From contig NC_042998.1 of NCBI RefSeq assembly GCF_006345805.1, positions 145,824,001 to 145,888,000 of the forward strand: a DNA stretch of 64,000 nt. Direction: 5' to 3'. Each line of letters starts with the position of its first letter. Position 1 is the stretch's first letter. The translations under genes and the position numbers were made by a program. Source of the stretch: Octopus sinensis. Its lineage: Eukaryota. Below are positions 1 through 32,640 of this stretch, one piece after another. The notes under the pieces were generated by a model. That model did no database searches. It saw only the letters and a program-made list of their open reading frames with translations, and was not told where the DNA came from.

Positions 1-369
1 AGTTTCTTTCACTGCTGATTACAATCACCGCAATTAATAACGACAAGCTAACTGCGATCAGAACATAAGATATCGTTCTCCAAAATTTAAGCGTGTGAGA
101 CAGGGCCATATCTTCTGTTCTCCAATTAAAGTCTGAAATTATAAATCAAGCACAGAACATGATTTCAATATTTTGTTACTGAATAAATTAAATCATTTTA
201 AATTTAGAACTGGAAGTTGGAAATTTCACTGATCTTTTAAATTATTTTTCTGCGGGCCTAGGACTCATGTGGCCGATTACTCGGTTTCTATGGCATATAA
301 GTGACTGAAATCACAATATTCACCCATATTCTCCGTTGCAACATATTCACCGTTGCAGAGTTCAATGTC

Positions 370-7839: not shown

Positions 7840-9125
7840 AAGTGGAGGTCAACCTTTACTTGTTTCGTCACTGGATGAAGATTTGGGTTGCTTTAATCTT
7901 CTAACTTTTCTTCCTTAATATCATTTCAATATCAACATTTGTGCGAGAATGGGTGAATCGTTTTATTCTCTCCTTCACTTCTTTCGTTCTTTTCTTCTTA
8001 ATTTCCTTCCACTTTCATTTCCTCTTTCTGTGGATGTGGAAGTGTTTTTGTGTTCTTACGTGTGTGTGTGTATGTGTGTGTGTGCGTGTGTACTTTCATA
8101 ACTACATCTCACCTCATCTATTTATTTATCAATTAAAAAAAATTTCTCGAAAGTTATTCTTCCATAACTTATTTCATAATGAAATACAATCCGAACTAAT
8201 ATTAAATAACTTTCAACATAAAATTTTCACTAAATATTTGCATTTACATTTTTATGTATTCCAAGTCATCTATGTAATTTTATTTCTAGCTGAAATCCAC
8301 TCAAAGTTTTTTTTCTTTTTTGCTTTTGTTTTCCTTTTCTGTATATATATCTTCGTTTTTTTTGCGGTGGTGGGTGTTTTTCGTTTTTGTTTTTGTTTTT
8401 TGTTTTTGTTTTTCTCGTCAATATTTAACAAATAGAGGGAGAATGGATTTATTTAATAGGAATTATTGAAATATTAAATCTTATTGCCTGAGGACTTCGG
8501 CTATTTTCATTGTTATTGTTGTTGTTACTACTACAACCGCCGTTATGCTTCATTCATCGCCAATAATAAGACAAACTCAGTGGAAAATTTAGATGTCATA
8601 ACGCTTGCATACACTTTTCGGGAGTATCTTCTACAACATCATGTTTTAGATGATGTAAGAGGTGACACAAAGCATTCTAGCGATTGTTTAAATGCAAACG
8701 ACATTGAATATATAACAGACGTCATAGTAATGTATGTACAGAAAAATATACATGTAAATCAAATGATATACATACACCAGAATCGCCAAGATAAGAGAGT
8801 GATTTGAATAACAGGGTTGGTGAATTTTAATTGAGAGCAGTCTCTCTGAGTTTTGATACTAATTCCGTGTTTAACTGACTGTGAATAACGGGACTTCATC
8901 AGAGGAGATTTCCAACTCTTGCAGACACCATAATGAATTAATATCTATAGGTTGTTCTGATCAAACAAATCTAGTAAATACCAGCTCCAAAATCTCTTAT
9001 GTATTCAATATAAATATATGCATCGTTTCCACCTGGTGGGTGGCAGCTTTAGTCCCAATTAAGCGAAAGCCACCAGTCAAAGAAAACCATGCTTATTTCT
9101 AAGGTTTTATATTGATAGAATTCAG

Positions 9126-9190
<65 letters not shown>

Positions 9191-9191
<1 letters not shown>

Positions 9192-11380
9192 TTTCAAAAA
9201 GGATGTAAACGTGGGTCCTATGGTTGTAAAGATCAGCTACTCGTCATTAAGATGATTTTGGAAGATTGTCACAAACAACACAAGAGCTTATCAATTGCCT
9301 GGATAGACTATAAAAAAGCTTTTATATAGCTGGATTTTAAAATGCTTAGCACCTACTCTGCGAAACTTATCTGTAAGTATGAGATCATGAAAAATAACAC
9401 TGACTTTGAATAGTGACAATGAAACTTTTAATGTTAGGAATGTAAGAATTTCATTTGGCATTTTCCAGGGTGACTCTCTATCACTACTCTTCTTTTGTCT
9501 AGCCTTAATACCTCTTTCGGAATTTCTTGATGATGTACAATATGGTTATAAAATTTTTGATAAAAATACAAATCATCCCTTTTACACACATGGTTTAAAG
9601 CTCTTTGCAAAAAATGACCAACAACTACACGGTTTACTGGCAATTGTAAAACAGTTCAGTGATGACAACAGGATGGGATTTGGCCTAGATAAATGTGGAA
9701 AAGCTACATTTATCAGAAGGAAAATGATAGAAACTTCCAACGTTAACCATGAACAACAGAATGCTATAAAGGAGTTAGAACCAGCGGAGAGCTACAAATA
9801 CCTAGGTGTATTTTAATAAGATGGAATCAAACGTTCAATGATGAGGAAAAAGATCAGAAAAGAATGTTATCGCAGGGTTAGGGCAATACTCAAGACAGAG
9901 CTGAACGCAGGAAACAGGATCGAAGTTGTCAATACTTTAGCCATAACTGTCGTATTATTAACTGGTCAATTATTGAGATCTCTAAGCTTGTCAGAAAAAT
10001 ACGAAAATTGTTGACAATGATTAGAATGCACCACCCGAAGGCAGATATTTAACGACTGTACCTGTCAAGAAAAGAGGCTGACCGTGGACTTCTGCAACTG
10101 GAATTGACAATGAAGATTGCCACAATTGGTCAAAACACTTACCTGAAAAACTCTGATGACTGAATGTTAAAACTTCTCTTGATGCATGAAAACAAGAAAA
10201 CGTCATACTCAGTAACAAAACAGGCAAAGAAATATCTAAGTGAATTCCAAATACAACAAATCCCAGAATTAGACGTACTGGAAACAAGCACAGAAAAACT
10301 AAAGGTATGAAAACCCTTGCTAAAACGGTTGCTTTAGATATTTTACTGATAAATGGCAGGTAAAATCTCTCAATGGCAAATATCCAAAGAGAGCTAATAA
10401 TGCTGATGTTAACAAAGCCCTTACCCATCAATGGTTAGTATCTTCTGGCTTAAAATCAGAGACTGATAGATTTATCATAGCAGCACAAGATCAATGCCTA
10501 CCTACAAGAAGCTACCAGGCCATCTTAAAGAACGGCAATAGCTCAATAAGTCAGGTGTGCAAAAAACAAAATGAAATCATCGAATATGTTGTCTCCGGAC
10601 GTAGTTTTCTTGTGCCTACAGAGTATCTGAACAGGCATGATAGAGCGGCAAAGTATATTCACTTGGTAATTTGCAAACACTTGGATCTGTCCCATGATAA
10701 AAACTGGTGGGAACACAAACCAACTCCAGTGCTTGAAAATGATCACACCTCACTCCTTTCCAACTCCACTGTTCAAACTAACAGAAAGATAGATGCAAAT
10801 AGGCCAGACATTATGTTGATGGATTGCAGGCAAAAACATGCCTACTCATCGATATGTCTGTCTCAATCGACATAAATGCATCTGTCAAGACCTACCAAAA
10901 ACTGAGCAAGTATAAAGATCTAGAAATAGAAATTGGCAAAATGTGGAACTTCCAGAATAAAACGATACCTGTTGTCATAAGAGCTCTAGGAATGATAGCA
11001 AAAAAGAAACCCAAATATGAAAGAAATTCAAAAAATAGTGCTCATAGGAACTGCTCATATCCTAAGAAAAATATTGTCTGTATAATCCCAAAAACATTTT
11101 AATCTGTAAACAGTGTCAAAACACTTTTAAATGTACGCTACAGCAAACACCTTTTACTGTCATCATATCGTCACACTATCATCTTACCATCAAGTTACTT
11201 TTAAAACAAACTTCTAATCTTCTGATGTTTTGACAGGCATTCTCTAGAACAATACTCTGTGCAAAACCAAAAGTATAGCATCCTAGTCATAACACCAAAT
11301 TGAACTTCTAGCTGCTGTCTCTCGAGGTATGTGGGTGTGACTTGCAGTCAACTTGTACAAATACAAAGCAAAAGCCAAAC

Positions 11381-11383
<3 letters not shown>
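9191..11383 (+). mobile_element. R4/Dong-like non-LTR retrotransposon (RT + restriction-like endonuclease), 5'-truncated, frameshifted
   Basis: QKGCKRGSYGCKDQLL, AWIDYKKAF, GIFQGDSLS, FGLDKC, YKYLG, RHDRAAKYIH, NRPDI, KLSKYKDL motifs; (TAA)n on both flanks. Confidence 0.92.
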
Positions 11384-11449
<66 letters not shown>

Positions 11450-11451
<2 letters not shown>

Positions 11452-11998
11452 GCCCTCATGCAGTACCAGGCAGTGGCTCTCATGGCTTCTGATCTTAACT
11501 GATTGGAAGTGTATCATGTACATTGTTTTGTCTTGGTATAAAAGATGGGCTACAGCAAATATTCTGCTCAATACCACAGATTTGCTTGTCAGTTGTTGAC
11601 CTTAACCAGTTGAGCATGTCCTTTAGTGGCTGACGATATGTGCATCTCTGATCACGAACAGAGTAGGGGGGAGCATCATAGCCATGTGTTGAGAGGGATT
11701 CTTTGGGGTTTCAATGATTCACCTCTGGAAACATGGGTGGTTCTTTCAACATCCTTAAACAACCCTATTCAGGGACCTTTTGAGCGGGATGGGTTACTCG
11801 ATCTGAAGAAAATTCTAACTGGGCCCCACCTGCAAGGTCATGTGCTGTTTATCTTGATATGAGATCACCATGTCGCGCACATATGGTTGTGATGCATGTG
11901 CCTGGTGTACCTTATCAGACGGGTAGTCATGATGGGTATACTGGGCTTCGTATATTTTACCCCAGTGTCACTTGATGGCATGCTCTGCTCGCTCACTC
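11450..11998 (+). mobile_element. ~550-bp non-coding element inserted in (TAA)n, copy 1
   Basis: Near-identical to 12293-12813 and 21724-22297 with the same two ends (ATGCCCT.ATGCAGTACC ... CTCACTC-(AAT)n); biological strand not established. Confidence 0.85.
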
Positions 11999-12051
11999 AA
12001 TAATAATAATATAATAATAATAATAATAATAATGATGATGATGATGATGAT

Positions 12052-12098
<47 letters not shown>

Positions 12099-12111
12099 AA
12101 TAATAATGATA

Positions 12112-12179
<68 letters not shown>

Positions 12180-12222
12180 GAAGATGATGATAATAATAAT
12201 AATGATAATGATAATAATAATA

Positions 12223-12292
<70 letters not shown>

Positions 12293-12293
<1 letters not shown>

Positions 12294-12813
12294 TGCCCTG
12301 ATGCAGTACCAGGCAGTGGCTCTCATGGCTTTTGATCTTAACTGATTGGAAGTGTTATCATGTACATTGTTTTGTCTTGGTATAAAAGATGGGCTACAGC
12401 AAATATTCTGCTCAATACCACAGATTTGCTTGAGCATGTCCCTTAGTGGCTGACGATATGTGGATCTCTGATCACGAGCAGAAGTAGTGGGGAGCATCAT
12501 AGCCATGTGTTGAGAGGGATTCTTTGGGGTTTGAATAATTCACCTCTGGAAACATGGGTGGTTCTTTCAACATCCTTAAACAACCCTTATTCAGGGACCT
12601 TTTGAGCGGGATGGGCTACTCAACCTGAAGAAAATCCCAACTGGGCCCCACCTGCAAGGTGATGCGCTGTTTATCTTGATATGAGATCACCATGTCGCGC
12701 ACATATGGTTGTGATGCATGTGCCAGGTGTACCCTTATCAGACGGGTAGTCAAGATGGGCTTCGTATATTTTACCCCAGTGTCACTTTGATGGCATGAAC
12801 TGCTCTCTCACTC
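12293..12813 (+). mobile_element. ~550-bp (TAA)n-inserted element, copy 2
   Basis: Same sequence and ends as copy 1, with small internal deletions. Confidence 0.85.
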
Positions 12814-13989
<1,176 letters not shown>

Positions 13990-14190
13990 TCTTCCTACTA
14001 AAGGCACAAAACTTGAAATTTGGGGGAAGGGGGTATGTCGATGACATCGACCCCAGTACTTAACTCGTACTTAATTTATCGACCCCGGAAGGATGAAAGG
14101 TAAGAAATTGAATTTAGAACGAGAGGACGGACAAAATTCCGCTAAGCATTTTGTCCGGCGTGTTAACGATTCTACCAGCTCGCCGCCTTA
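13990..14190 (-). mobile_element. SINE family A
   Basis: Core CGACCCCAGTACTTAACTCGTACTTAATTTATCGACCCC; head ends CCAGCTCGCCGCCTTA. Confidence 0.8.
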
Positions 14191-14676
14191 ACTAGCTCAA
14201 AAAATAATTTCTAAAATGCAAACGTTAAACGCATTCCGATGTTTGATCTTTTGGTGTAAACTATGAGTATAATAAATTCAACATAACTTTATATTAGAGA
14301 ATCATATATAATCTTTCAAGAGTGTCGATGAAATAAATAATATTAACCACCATGGTTTAAGAGATGAAACTTAACGATACCTAAAGCTATTTTCTTAATG
14401 ACTGGAATCACTTACAGTTAAAGGATGCCGCAACATAATTATATAATGACGATTTTACGCGCAAGTAAATAGATCTTTTCCATGTTGTTATATTCTTGAT
14501 GAGGACTCTTATTTACATCGGAGGAAGGTCACCGTGACACAGCAATAAATTTCCACCACCACCCGGATAGCAAATTGCTTCTTCTTTATGAAGTTGCATT
14601 ATAGACGACATCGCTTTACAATGGCGACTGTTTTCTTTACAAGTAAATACGTTTTATCAGGCAAAAATTCGAGGAG

Positions 14677-14763
<87 letters not shown>

Positions 14764-14821
14764 GTATGTATATATATTTATACATGTATATATGTATATA
14801 TATATACATACATACATATCT

Positions 14822-15105
14822 ATCTATATATATAAAACTGAGAATGTGTGTCTGTCTGTCTGCGTGAATCCCTAAAACTTGAGAACTACACAACCAATTT
14901 CATTCAAATTTTACACATGCCTTACTTAGGGTCCAAGGAGTGTCATGGGCAAAAAAACATTTTTAACTTATTGCCCAGGGCTAGCCCACAGCAATATCAT
15001 ATCTTCTCCACTATGAATCCCTAAAACTTGAGAACTACACAACCAATTTCATTGAAATTTTACACATGCCATACTTAAGGTCTATGCAGTGTCATGGGCA
15101 AAACA
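14822..15105 (+). mobile_element. Non-autonomous Helitron-like 5' portion with ~90-bp internal duplication
   Basis: Starts A|TCTATATATATAAAA then (GTCT)n; TGAATCCCTAAAACTTGAGAACTACACAACCAATTTCATT..GTGTCATGGGCAAAA occurs at ~14865 and ~15014. Confidence 0.5.
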
Positions 15106-15107
15106 AT

Positions 15108-15275
15108 TTCGCCCGTCGCTACGTTCTGAGTTCAAATTCCGCCTTGATCGACTTTGCCTTTCATCCTTTCGGGGTCGATAAAATAAGTACCAGTTGAACA
15201 CTGAGGTCGATGTAATCAACTCATCCCCCACTTCCCCCTTTAGCAGCCTAGTGGCAAAAATTTGAAGTAATTAGT
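15108..15275 (+). mobile_element. SINE family A (plus orientation)
   Basis: ACGTTCTGAGTTCAAATTCCGCC..GCCTTTCATCCTTTCGGGGTCGATAAAATAAGTACCAG. Confidence 0.8.
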
Positions 15276-15387
15276 GCTGTAAATGTTTTTTAGGATAATC
15301 ATGATGGTAATGGTGGAGGTGGTTTTCATCATGGTGGTCTTGGTGGTGGTGCTGGTGCTGGTGATGATAATGACGACGACGACGACG

Positions 15388-15419
<32 letters not shown>

Positions 15420-15536
15420 GATGTGATGGTTGTATTGGTGGTGGTGGTGGTGGTATTGATGATAATGATGATTGAGAGAGAGTACGTGACGGTGGAAGAG
15501 GGACTGTTACTTCTGTTATTCTCTACCCTTAGTGGG

Positions 15537-15595
<59 letters not shown>

Positions 15596-15968
15596 GTTAT
15601 CAAATCCCTCAATATTTTTTTCTAGAAACTGAATAATTTATATATTCAAAGTCAGATGCATGTATTTTTATCTATTTATTTATCTTATAACCTTTATTTA
15701 TCTATCTAACTTCTGCATGCGTATACACGCAAACATTCAGTCTATACATGCCTACACACACTGACACACACTAGCACACACGCATCGACACATACATACA
15801 TAGGTACACCCACTCATATTTACATATGCATGTGCTTACATATAGTTGTATATACGTACACACAAACTCACAAACACACACAGTCATATGCACACAAACA
15901 TGTATATACATGTATATGCATGTGTGTATATACCTATATATATATATTTATGTGTGTGTTTATAGTGT

Positions 15969-16006
<38 letters not shown>

Positions 16007-18549: not shown

Positions 18550-19503
18550 TCTAAGTCCACAAAAAACTATATCTGGTTTGTTATACCTTTCGGAAAACAA
18601 ATCAAATCGAACCTTCCTTTACAGTTCCGTGAAGCAGTGGCTATGAACTTTCCCAGGAATTCTATGTATTATTCTATTATCAATTCACATAAGGTAAGAA
18701 TTGCATTCTCTAACACTAGAAATCTATCGCAAATTATTGCTTCCCATAATAACAAGCTGCTAAACAAAGATTCTTCACCCGGGAGTTCTAACACTATTCT
18801 TAACAATTCCAACCAAACATACAATAATAATAATAGAAATAATATTGATAGTACCAACATTCGTAGCAACATTAATGTTAGCAATGATAATATTAATAAT
18901 AGAATTAGTCGGGTTAATAACAGTGGTAGTATTGATGACAACAACAACAACAACATTTCTATTATCAGTGATAATGCCGGTTATAGTACAATTAATAATA
19001 ATAACAATAAAAGAAATAGTCTAGTAGTTAATGCTAGCAATAATATAAACAGTAATCATAACAATAAAAACTCCATCTTGATCTCGGAGGATAACCCTAA
19101 CAGATTAGACTTCTTGTCCAATAATTCCAAAATTAAAAATTCCATTTACCAGTATAAAATTTCTTACGGTACCGATGTCTTCTTTTATATTGGTGCGACA
19201 ACTTCTCCATTGTCCCAGAGAATTTCCAACCATTATTCAACTTTCCGAGATAAGAGAAAACAACATAGTACAGGACTAAGTAAATCAGTTTGGCGTCTTA
19301 AGGACAACAATATAACTTTCAAGCTGGATTGGTCCATATTATCTGTATCCTTTCCTTTTGATGAGGGCAGGAAATATTGTTGCATCTGTAATTCTGAACT
19401 CTTCTATATACTTTTCGCCAAATTCCCCTTGGTAAACACAATAATAGAAAAATCCTATAGATGTAAACATTGGCAAAAACATACCTTCCACTCATATAAA
19501 TAA
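18550..19503 (+). CDS. Penelope-like element ORF, C-terminal part: RT-linker + Asn-rich insert + GIY-YIG endonuclease (5'-truncated)
   Basis: Open frame from 18550: IWFVIPF..NFP..KVRIAFSNTRNLSQIIASHN; SIYQY...FYIGAT...QRISNHYSTF..STGLSKSVW..WSIL..CCICNSE..RCKH. Confidence 0.85.
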   Translation, partial: SKSTKNYIWFVIPFGKQIKSNLPLQFREAVAMNFPRNSMYYSIINSHKVRIAFSNTRNLSQIIASHNNKLLNKDSSPGSSNTILNNSNQTYNNNNRNNIDSTNIRSNINVSNDNINNRISRVNNSGSIDDNNNNNISIISDNAGYSTINNNNNKRNSLVVNASNNINSNHNNKNSILISEDNPNRLDFLSNNSKIKNSIYQYKISYGTDVFFYIGATTSPLSQRISNHYSTFRDKRKQHSTGLSKSVWRLKDNNITFKLDWSILSVSFPFDEGRKYCCICNSELFYILFAKFPLVNTIIEKSYRCKHWQKHTFHSYK

Positions 19504-19640
19504 TAAATAATATAGATAACCTCTTTGGTTTTAGTAATTACTTTCACGTCTACACCACTACCGTAGACAAATGCTTCCTCTCTATTCTGTTGCATCAAAC
19601 ATTAAATATAGTTGGCGTATGTTTATCTCTTTCTCTTTAC

Positions 19641-19684
<44 letters not shown>

Positions 19685-20024
19685 TGCGCACAATCAAACA
19701 CACAGACACAAATTTCTCACATTAATACTATATATATTTGACAATTGTCCCCCCCCCACATATACATTTGCAAACACACACACACACAGATGCAGTTATA
19801 TACACACACAAACACTCAAACTCATTAACAAAACATACACCCGTCAATCCCCATACATACAGCATACAAACTGTTCCCTTCCTATTTTTTTATAACTTCC
19901 TCCTTCCATCCAATTTTGAGGTCATTGCTTATAACGGATTATTTTAAATAAATACTCATTATCACTGTGGAAACCATGTAGGCAGACGGTAAGAAGCTTT
20001 TGTTCGTCTTGAGGCTGATAGAGG

Positions 20025-20123
20025 TTCCTTGTATTTCCTGATGAGAAGACGGCATAATGCAACCTTCATTCCTTCGGAATTAAGAATATGCAGTCTTCGA
20101 AACATATGTCGAAAGTAAAGGAA
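20025..20123 (+). ncRNA. Type I hammerhead ribozyme, intact core
   Basis: TTCCTTgtaTTTC-CTGATGA-GAAGAC..(42 nt)..GTCTTC-GAAA-CATAT-GTC-GAAAgtaAAGGAA; palindromic stem III ACATATGT; cleavage predicted after 20110. Confidence 0.9.
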
Positions 20124-20306
20124 TTTGGATAAAATCTTCGTTCGACTCCATTCTTTTCATTTATTCATATAAAAAAACACACAAATTTCCACACATGAAC
20201 ACGGGGTTCAGCCCTGGGCATGTAACTTCAACCGTGTTTTACTGAAGTGAATTTGCTACCCAGGTATCGATTAACAGAATTATCCATACTAGGATAATTC
20301 ATTCAT

Positions 20307-20340
<34 letters not shown>

Positions 20341-29599: not shown

Positions 29600-30871
29600 T
29601 TTTATAGAGATGTTTCTTTATTGCCACACAGGGCTGCACACAGATAGAACAAATTACAAGGTAGAGCTTTTCTTTTGAAGGTTTAAAAAAAAATTAAAAA
29701 AAAAAAAAAAAAAAAGGAAGGGGGAGTTTCGATCAAAAGGATCGTAAAAGGAGAGAAAGAGGCACAAAAAAGGGGGGGTTAAAAAAAAAAAAAAAAGGGG
29801 AGAGGAAAAAAAAATTGATCAATAGGATCGTTATCACAGAAATGTCAATATGAAGTGTAAAGGGGAGGACAGGTGAGGTTTACCCGTGGAAAGAAAAGCC
29901 TACGGAAAAGACCACGGTAACCTCGGTCAATGAAGTCACATTATATTTCTTTTTTTTTTTTTTTTTTTTTTTTTTGCAAATAAGCAACTCTCTGTTTTCG
30001 ATTTCTGGGTTCATTAGGACTATGCGCAAGGTGGCTTCGTCATTCATACGTGCCATTCTTGCTACATTCACCCATCTTTTTTTAAAAAACATTCGCTAGA
30101 CAAAACTTGCCTCTCTACTCTCACTTTCCTTTTCAAGTGGTACTTGAAGAAGTTGATGAGATTGACCAGAGAGGAAAGTGTTTGTCTCCAATCCTTTCAG
30201 ACGCTCACCAGATACATTCTTTCGCCATAGCCACAAGGATGATGAAAATAGCTCTTCCTTCCCGTTTGAAGGAAGGAGGCGTGACAATATTGACGATAGA
30301 CTCAGCTGATAAACCGACTCGTCCCACGTGACAGCAGTTGTTCGACATAAGCCCACAGGTCGGAAATTGTTGGACCACTGACGAGTGCGTGCAGAACGGT
30401 TTCGTCGCTCTGACCGCATCTCGGGCAGGTCGGCCCCGTGTTTCTCGAGCCGTGTCTGTAGAGCTTATCCCGAACGGGTAGCGCTTCTCGGTAGCACTGC
30501 CAGGCCAGGGATCTCTCGAAGTTGGTCCATGGGCCCTGGCCCGAAAGTCGTCCCGAACAGGCGGTCAGGTACTCCTCGTCGACGTCCAGTTTCGCCCCAA
30601 GCTCGTCGTCGTACCTCCCCTCCACTAAACCCCTATAGAATGCTTTGGGTGTGTTGAAGTCACTTAAGGTCGACCCAGGACGGCAGAGTTGCTTGAGAGC
30701 AACGCGACACTCGTGGTGCCATTCGCCTTCCTCGGCCTCTTTTTGATCCACGACTGCAGTTCGGTCATGGAGACGAGCTGGCGGAAAGCGTGCCTCACAA
30801 ACGGCGACCACACCTGTTCACCGTCGTCTACATAGAGCCAGAGATGTCGCAGTCTCAGCGCGTGTCTGCGC

Positions 30872-30967: not shown

Positions 30968-31447
30968 TTACACACACACGCACACACACATATTTATATA
31001 ATGTGATAATGTGTGTATGTGCTTATACACATATGTGAATGTATGTATGTACGCATGTTTTTTTATCATATGCTTTTAATTTTTCACCAACAGAGTAGAT
31101 TTCTAGCCTAAAAAGACTAAAATTTAGACATTTCTATGCATGTATACATGAATACAAAAACTGTGTGCTCACAAATATGCATGTACATATATTCATATGC
31201 ATATTTATATGCACATTTGGCGCATGAGGTTTAATTAATATTGTATGTACGGATATCATTATGTGCTAAACTTTAAAAATATTTTTAATATTTTGTTAAT
31301 ACCTTTGAGAAGTTGTAGCTGTAGTTTTCTGATTGGGTATGATCTTTCTGATTTTGTTAATTCTGGTTTCTCAAGATTGGTATTGAGGCAGTTTGTCATG
31401 CAGCCAAATGCTCCAATATTTATGAGTAAAAATCTAAAGTTATATTA

Positions 31448-32283
31448 TTAAGGTTATTTCTACAGATATTCTATAGAAATTGTAACCAACACTCATTTTT
31501 GCTACAGCGTTTCGTATACGAGATGTCAGACGTAAACAAACAATGATATCGAAGATGAAAATGAGTAATGGGCGTGCATGCCATATATTCGGGAGGGGGG
31601 TCCCCTCATCAGTACCCATCTAACCTATAAACCATCCTCAAACCCATTGCTTAAATAGCCATCACACATAGCGGTGCAAAGTTATTGGATATACCAATTT
31701 ACATATTAAACGCATTCCTGGAATCTGGTATGTAAATACTAATGATTTGTAGGTACGTGGTATTTCCTTGTACAACCATAATATACTATAAAGTATATTA
31801 AATGTTTTTATAAGTAAATACCATGTTCTACCGCGTTACCAGTGCGCTTTACATTATTTTGTTAAGGCTATTTCTGCAAATAGTCGTATCAGCTTCCAGG
31901 AATTCCTTTAATATATAAATTGGCATACCCAATAGTTTTACAGCGCTACGTGTGGTTGCTATTTAAGCAATGTATTCGAAGATGATTTATGGGTTAAGTA
32001 GGTGCTGATGAAGGTGCTAAATCCCCGAAATATGGTATATACGCATATTACCCATTTTTCATCTTCGATATCATTCTTTGTTTACAACTGACGTCTCGTA
32101 TACGAAATGCTATAGCAAAAATCAATAGAATATCTGTAGAAATAACCTTAACAAAATAATGTAAAGTGCACTGCTAATGCAGTAGAACATGTCATTTACT
32201 TATAAACGCATTTAATATGCTTTATATATTATGGTTGCATACCTAAATGCCGCGCTTCTATAAATCATTAGTTTCTAAAACCA
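31448..32283. mobile_element. Inverted pair of circularly permuted ~400-bp hammerhead-bearing monomers (retrozyme-like)
   Basis: Copy 1 (31448-31882) order A-B-C-A; copy 2 (31885-32283) is the reverse complement of C-A-B; CTGATGA..GAA motifs at 31612-31587 (-) and 32005-32030 (+). Confidence 0.7.
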
Positions 32284-32339
32284 TTGTTCAAATTAAGTAA
32301 TTGTAAATTTCTCATTATTTCGATGTATATATGTATGTC

Positions 32340-32640
32340 AGATTATCTTTAGTGCTGCTGATAACATGCAACCTAGTACAAGCCATTCCTGGTCAGCCCG
32401 TTGATGACTAAACAGGCAACCCTACCAAGCTTGCTTGTTAAGGAGAGTGGTTTTCGTTGGACACCCAGTAAGATGAAAATAAAAATCTAACAAAGGACAG
32501 ACGAACTCAGCAGAGGCAACGACCATTCAACAGCTGGGTGTAGGAGACCACTTGTCTTTGTTTAGTTGTTTATCTAGGAGCGATAAATTCTGAAGTAGCA
32601 TTCACCTCATTGCATAGCCAGAGATCTTGCTCTTGCATGT
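32340..32640 (+). mobile_element. Degraded RTE-like 5'UTR fragment (tentative)
   Basis: CAACGACCATTCAA and TCTAGGAG..AATTCTGAA resemble 56866-57020. Confidence 0.3.

Follow-up and report, generated by a model that had tools for sequence, protein, structure and literature searches.

A head-to-head insertion of an old 413-nt hammerhead repeat in Octopus sinensis, likely copied by a Penelope-like enzyme

Animal non-LTR retrozymes are short, non-coding elements of low GC content, organized as head-to-tail units with one type I hammerhead ribozyme each. Circular RNAs of such elements have been shown for coral, mussel and axolotl, with Penelope-like elements (PLEs) proposed as their movers (Cervera & de la Pena 2020, PMC7229834), and the copying of circles by PLEs has been put forward (PMC7229834, PMC4209133). 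According to a recent preprint, animal retrozymes are non-autonomous PLE derivatives (Li et al. 2026, 10.64898/2026.07.22.740005). The case for their movement by PLEs has so far relied on co-occurrence and on similarity to pLTRs. On the PLE side, Craig et al. (10.1101/2021.04.23.441226) describe partial tandems together with an inverted copy that is truncated at its 5' end and a tail of 30-40 bp on one side, and the Pen2a element of Adineta displays inverted pLTRs, target-site duplications (TSDs) of 8-10 bp and a tail on one pLTR (PMC3846280). With the anole element Poseidon PAc, the purified PLE enzyme was reported to cut and extend both strands in vitro; two internal initiation sites bound the tail, a dimer was predicted, and hammerhead cleavage was unnecessary (PMC11167929). 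PLE hammerheads are characterized by an extra base after A9, a G10.1-C11.1 pair and a palindromic helix III (PMC4209133). Literature searches, with repeat libraries and supplements outside their scope, found no paper on such a family of hammerhead elements in octopus or other cephalopods, and the text of PMC13282606, as far as it was accessible, makes no mention of ribozymes. The family described here may already be catalogued in a repeat library without the present interpretation.

The locus under study lies at 31440-32277 of a 64,000-nt stretch of the Octopus sinensis genome (hereafter the window; contig NC_042998.1, positions 145,824,001 to 145,888,000), which contains this single locus of the family. 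BLAST of the two halves and a repeat search resolved it into head-to-head arms of one 413-nt unit, each opened elsewhere on the unit. A preliminary description had recognized two inverted, circularly permuted monomers of about 400 nt, which two inverted BLAST blocks bear out, one with 77% identity across 292 columns (E 9e-61) and the other with 81% across 157 (E 3e-36); it had identified the locus correctly, but its limits (31448-32283) are shifted by the alignment to those given above. The arms are about 82% (81.5%) identical overall, and this divergence of ~18% accords with copies first described as visibly diverged. In the numbering used here, the unit starts at the hammerhead cleavage site, and two fixed 3' ends, designated E1 and E2, lie ~130 and ~252 nt past it. 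Arm 1 (31440..31885, minus strand) is 445 nt or 1.08 units long, belongs to subfamily A and is 88% identical to the column-majority unit; it runs from a 5' truncation at unit position 103 to a 3' end at E1 (unit position 134, window position 31440). Its terminal redundancy, previously read as a 414-bp period, amounts to ~29-32 nt repeated at offset 414 (31440-31468 versus 31854-31882). The outer end of arm 1, segment A (31440..31468, minus strand), is an AC-rich E1 zone that recurs at 31854-31882 and, in arm 2, at 32128-32159. Arm 2 (31885..32277, plus strand), also of subfamily A and 81% identical to the column-majority unit, covers one unit length, from position 256 to ~251-255, with its 3' end at E2 (~32273-32277, plus strand); the alignment agrees with the earlier reading of this copy as the reverse complement of segments C-A-B. 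An 18-nt deletion occurs near 32120 in arm 2 (plus strand), and the 18-20 nt between segments A and B (31475-31494) are part of the unit, deleted in arm 2. This deletion adjoins a short hairpin (unit positions ~93-117) in which many copies of the family have small deletions, between two near-identical 8-nt words. In arm 1 the short hairpin (31456..31480/31481, minus strand; 20/25 complementary by self-alignment) ends ~15 nt before E1, and a long hairpin in segment C (31755..31826, minus strand; 58/74 complementary by self-alignment) ends ~20 nt before E2. The long hairpin and segment A form a ~120-nt 'tail' between E1 and E2, and both hairpins may have a role in priming.

The two 5'-truncated arms meet at the inversion junction (31880..31890), where they overlap by 1 nt at 31885. 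An independent DNA run yielded a contig that reads across this junction (31786-32151) with 0 mismatches; together with the divergence of the arms, this indicates that the locus is not an assembly palindrome or artefact. A possible 6-nt TSD (31433..31438 and 32274-32279, plus strand), read from the sequence, is within the chance range here, the mean of the cross-locus null being 6.4 nt. To the left, a LINE fragment (30305-30817, minus strand; zf-RVT match, E 9e-7) is bounded by a (GATA)n microsatellite; to the right, 32372-32473 is a fragment of a far commoner repeat, with a depth of 8,000-16,000 in DNA runs and of 190-2,400 in runs guessed to be RNA. As anticipated in the preliminary description, the inverted pair has the capacity to form long dsRNA: its predicted folding reaches an MFE of -365 kcal/mol (z -24 against 20 shuffles), and a read-through transcript of the locus would, if transcribed, form a long hairpin. 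Contigs matching the locus in two runs guessed to be RNA (61 and 65) are mostly <90% identical to it, these representing other family members; they carry no information on starts, ends or circles and were counted neither for nor against expression. The single locus is a decayed copy, to which no function is assigned.

Taken over 49 copies, the column majority yields a type I hammerhead that is complete in all core bases and three helices, in line with the hammerhead-like core first noticed in the locus. Helix I comprises 8 + 7 pairs with a 2-nt bulge, and the core consists of CUGAUGA followed by an additional A, a helix II of 4 bp that is closed by G10.1-C11.1 and bears a loop 2, GAAA, and a 4-bp palindromic helix III, with predicted cleavage after AUA. 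The extra base after A9 and the palindromic helix III are shared with endonuclease-containing PLEs, whereas the long bulged helix I and the 4-bp helix II resemble those of a canonical type I ribozyme, unlike the minimal PLE hammerhead. Across 44 of the 49 copies, 84.7% of cells pair, a level that only 1 shuffle in 500 attained, and two-sided change is found in 13 of the 23 hammerhead pairs, although such figures are inflated by the kinship of the copies and the structure was drawn from the majority sequence. By a strict pattern, the core is intact in only 16 of the 49 copies. A hammerhead-like core had been claimed for each arm of the locus, which holds for the core of arm 2 but not for that of arm 1. 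The arm 2 hammerhead (type I, 31988..32056, plus strand) comprises helix I (31988-32004/32042-32056), CUGAUGA (32005-32011), the extra A (32012), helix II (32013-32016/32023-32026), GAAA (32027-32030) and helix III (to 32040). It keeps its catalytic core, and cleavage is predicted after A32041; the core had first been read as ending in a GTA at 32035-32037, and the cleavage triplet is corrected here to AUA at 32039-32041, after the 4-bp helix III. Its score of 94.9 bits comes from a model built from copies of the same family and is thus not independent. The arm 1 hammerhead (31560..31629, minus strand; CUGAUGA at 31612-31606) is decayed, with a base inserted in GAAA and U16.1 changed to C, and is predicted to be inactive. 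Rfam, searched over 31400-32320, detected no hammerhead at E<=10, and all matches from the Rfam scans were to miRNAs and driven by repeats. When whole monomers were folded with RNAalifold, helix I was the sole helix to appear.

Defined from 22 near-full copies, the unit is 413 nt long with 35% GC, and its column majority has no stop-free frame over 60 codons, in agreement with the earlier statement that the locus holds no ORF. An exact 16-nt hammerhead word occurs at 133 sites of the 2.72-Gb genome (control 0) and in 7 of 44 aligned copies, from which roughly 800 hammerhead-bearing copies can be estimated as a lower bound. These copies, non-coding and running head-to-tail through the unit, substantiate the multicopy, retrozyme-like family suspected at the outset. 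DNA searches returned 1,596 and 2,263 candidates, 40 of each being scored. Individual segments match the column majority at 77-89% identity, with a mean of 84%, and the family looks old, dispersed and now inactive. Linked variants split it into two subfamilies (58 and 65 typed segments). Twelve duplicate loci, 2 more, 10 further duplicates, 2 word sites without a family match and locus L189 were removed before the counts given below, from which clusters <150 nt were also excluded. In one locus (L165, G000:C1:117472903-117475918), a ~190-nt sub-fragment that contains the hammerhead (unit 302 to 78) stands three times in local tandem within a single insertion, possibly the start of a satellite.

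As a short, non-coding, low-GC, head-to-tail unit with one type I hammerhead, the repeat resembles animal non-LTR retrozymes; its size is close to that of mussel retrozymes (350-390 nt) and slightly above the 170-400 nt quoted for invertebrates. Like retrozymes, it coexists with PLEs and is proposed to be a non-autonomous PLE derivative. In contrast to them, the family shows no dimer-to-multimer arrays in 130 loci (maximum 1.7 units), its copies are dispersed, old and often head-to-head, and no homologous pLTR was found in 80 of many thousand Penelope-like loci.

The ends of the copies provide a first indication of how the family was inserted. Among 81 segments of at least 120 nt from 59 BLAST-selected loci, 30 have their 3' end at positions 101-140 (E1) and 29 at 241-280 (E2), while the 5' ends fill 20 of 21 bins. 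Since BLAST selection could bias the ends, 73 loci were drawn by hammerhead words alone; the E1 and E2 peaks appeared again, and the 5' ends spread smoothly. Clusters of 5' ends at unit positions ~103 and ~256, seen in the BLAST-selected loci, were gone in the hammerhead-selected set and reflect query bias, and most copies with a candidate third 3' end at ~105 turn out to extend to ~135 beyond a small deletion. Loose ends with heterogeneous flanks pile up in two other DNA runs at the corresponding window positions, 31448 (66 and 57 contigs) and 31740 (57 and 35). Both E1 and E2 are situated 15-20 nt after a hairpin, within AC-rich sequence. Fixed 3' ends combined with ragged 5' ends suggest that reverse transcription used the hammerhead strand as its template. 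A circular RNA had been expected to leave scattered starts and tandem arrays: the 5' ends do scatter, but the 3' ends are fixed at two sites and arrays are absent from the 130 loci.

These 130 loci comprise 132 clusters, of which 63 are head-to-head, 68 have a single orientation and 1 has another mixed layout. Single-orientation clusters end at E1 (28), at E2 (28) or elsewhere (12). Where both ends of a head-to-head cluster could be classed, E1 is paired with E2 in 30 of 32 cases (17/19 in the hammerhead-ascertained set), the exceptions being L173 (E2+E2) and L197 (E1+E1). At least one end falls outside both position ranges in 31 of the 63 head-to-head clusters, in many cases apparently due to later insertions or small deletions, as judged from those inspected. 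Of 26 pairs bounded by hand, 12 are flanked by TSDs of at least 9 nt, compared with 6% in pairings across loci, and the arms overlap by 1-4 nt at the inner junction in 15 of 27. The two arms belong to one subfamily in all 22 loci where both strands could be typed, and they have rare variants in common about four times as often within loci (5.0/kb) as between them (1.2/kb). The window locus is an ordinary example of the family: an E1 arm and an E2 arm, both of subfamily A, with 3 rare variants in common. The inverted pair could also be explained by two independent insertions, or a local DNA rearrangement, occurring by chance. Arms that are just 81.5% identical and a TSD that is weak at the window locus would suit this origin, yet the layout recurs in 63 clusters with the E1+E2 pairing described above, the two arms belong to the same subfamily and share 3 rare variants, and a mean arm identity of 83% within loci versus 78% between loci fits decay after a single old event. 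A chance origin is thus largely refuted, and we consider it highly improbable.

At 18550-20312 (plus strand), the window harbours a 5'-truncated, ORF-bearing element. It carries an asparagine-rich insert as well as a separate hammerhead, the core of which starts at ~20039 and the cut of which falls at ~20110. We take this element to be Penelope-like from its GIY-YIG-like C-terminal motifs, for which Pfam gave no supporting match. Its family counts 17,035 candidate relatives and has no detectable sequence in common with the 413-nt unit. In 30 loci of this family, the 3' ends lie mostly at +46..86 or ~+198 from the cleavage site, giving two ends ~140 nt apart that terminate in (TA)n, and the short end pairs with the long end in 6/6 clear head-to-head loci, with two ambiguous loci omitted (L221, cut by the locus edge, and L236, with a different subfamily and 900 nt between arms). 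Since this ORF-bearing Penelope-like family shows the same one-of-each pairing, in this genome the layout is a trait of Penelope-like elements, and no circle is needed to account for it. The permutation of the arms, initially taken for the footprint of a circle, is therefore better described as the Penelope pattern of pLTR and tail.

Other Penelope-like families of the genome have intact RT + GIY-YIG ORFs of 775-883 aa. One young family (L106, L102 and L103; G000:C1:207473000-207482000 and others) has an intact RT+GIY-YIG ORF of ~781 aa, which in L106 is preceded by a 479-aa ORF without Pfam match and flanked by 1.15-kb direct repeats, 99% identical, with a hammerhead-like motif. In the search for an autonomous partner, nhmmer (E<=1) gave 0 matches to the unit across the 379 kb of 80 Penelope-like loci, a small share of the 5,029 and 17,035 candidates; BLAST, a covariance model and nhmmer, run on sets of 50, 47 and 30 Penelope-like loci and then on all 80, revealed nothing. 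Weak matches in L115-L117 proved to be AT-rich microsatellite. In L188 and L189, pairs of words on the same strand, separated by 6 kb and 2 kb, stem from local duplication and do not represent pLTR-ORF-pLTR units. No RT or GIY-YIG ORF lies inside the unit or leads into it.

The copies might alternatively be solo or truncated pLTR 3' ends of a longer autonomous Penelope-like element, the ORF-bearing copies of which are unsampled or decayed. The hammerhead, the two 3' ends, the tail and the inversions are all pLTR features, and in L189 (G000:C10:45941500-45948500) a decayed copy has its E2 end next to a Penelope-like RT fragment that is open over 415 codons. However, the arms pass every unit position back into the unit and never into a common ORF, and tblastn of PLE proteins against the family loci found no ORF running into the unit. 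As for L189, the RT starts mid-ORF, is still open beside a decayed copy (84%) and sits within a 915-nt, 99.7% local duplication, so that it looks like a later insertion, possibly of a PLE that duplicated neighbouring DNA. We regard a pLTR origin of the copies as improbable.

Our preferred reading is that the locus represents one insertion of an old, protein-free 413-nt hammerhead repeat, likely copied by a Penelope-like RT/GIY-YIG endonuclease. Judged by its copies, the family appears to work like a non-autonomous PLE while resembling a retrozyme, and is best read as a non-autonomous, retrozyme-type PLE inserted in one two-strand priming event. Under this scheme, a PLE enzyme, probably a dimer, would bind the RNA at the two hairpins and cut both strands of an AT-rich target with a stagger of ~7-14 nt; one target strand would prime reverse transcription at E1 and the opposite strand at E2, after which microhomology would join the truncated cDNAs at their far ends. 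The end positions, the pairing, the TSDs and the agreement of subfamily between arms are observed; the identity of the enzyme and the order of these steps are what we infer. The family shares with endonuclease-containing PLEs the 5' truncation, the partial tandems, the inverted 5'-truncated copy, the tail at one end only, TSDs of similar length and two AC-rich 3' ends downstream of the hammerhead. It differs from them in a unit without RT or GIY-YIG ORF and in a tail of ~120 nt, compared with 30-40 nt in published PLEs and ~140 nt in the ORF-bearing family of the same genome. A further parallel is offered by the non-autonomous Chlamys elements (MRC1; Craig et al. 2021), which are described as ORF-less PLE passengers forming pLTRs and head-to-tail insertions; these elements are algal and share 3' sequence with an autonomous family, for which no counterpart was found among 80 Penelope-like loci of the octopus, and for the related Naiad elements the same source reports no hammerhead. 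The Penelope reading is weakened by the lack of an autonomous partner in the 80 loci searched, the ~120-nt tail, the two pairing exceptions, the 31 head-to-head clusters with an end outside both ranges, the chance-level TSD at the window locus, the lack of an Rfam hammerhead and the small number of copies (16 of 49) with an intact core.

The copies also inform on the template. The cleavage site is crossed by 152 arms, only 5 beginning or stopping there, and single alignments extend over two cleavage sites in L053 (690 nt), L039 (590), L036 (541) and L206 (533), which excludes a cleaved linear monomer as template. The DNA alone fits both an uncleaved tandem RNA and a ligated circle. We lean towards an uncleaved transcript of a partial tandem; the partial tandems of the family reach 690 nt, some spanning two hammerheads (L053, L039). 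A re-ligated circle is possible but seems less likely. It would involve the same Penelope machinery, reading up to ~1.7 turns of a covalently closed 413-nt circle that would arise when hammerheads cut the RNA twice and the ends are ligated. This amounts to the retrozyme life cycle, in essence the idea of the preliminary description, and departs from the preferred reading at the template step only. The arms that cross one or two cleavage sites are compatible with such a circle, as are the published retrozyme circles and the proposal that PLEs copy them (see above). The complete, well-paired consensus hammerhead and the missing source array also lean towards it: no array of at least two full units was found in 130 of the roughly 800+ loci, where the longest single alignment is 690 nt (1.7 units), nor any tandem array among the first 100 of the 133 exact-word sites. 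The lack of arms of two units leans slightly against a circle. If the stopping rate were constant, 1.2 such arms would be expected in the unbiased set, where none was observed; over all loci there was 1 doubtful merge versus 4.0 expected, chaining across gaps being able to merge separate insertions. The stopping rate climbs with arm length, and the test as a whole is weak and underpowered. Moreover, when folded as circles, the present-day monomers do no better than shuffles (arm 2, z -0.9) or modestly better (arm 1, z -2.3), uncleaved RNA was reported as the main substrate of the anole PLE (PMC11167929), and the two-armed layout is equally found in the ORF-bearing family. Slightly less probable is the fuller proposition of a fossil SINE-like retrozyme family, dispersed in the form of a 413-nt ribozyme circle on which a dimeric Penelope enzyme had two fixed start sites, one for each target strand.

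What these data add to the case for retrozyme movement by PLEs is a signature at the level of the insertion, consisting of two fixed priming sites, one-of-each pairing in inverted insertions and TSDs, which has its counterpart in an ORF-bearing family of this genome. The known remark that PLE copies have a tail at one end only now has counts. The unit represents a small natural substrate for testing two-strand priming by PLEs from different RNA sites, as well as their use of circles. If the family did spread as a circle, its copies would constitute genome-scale evidence that Penelope enzymes copy circular RNAs, each insertion using each initiation site exactly once.
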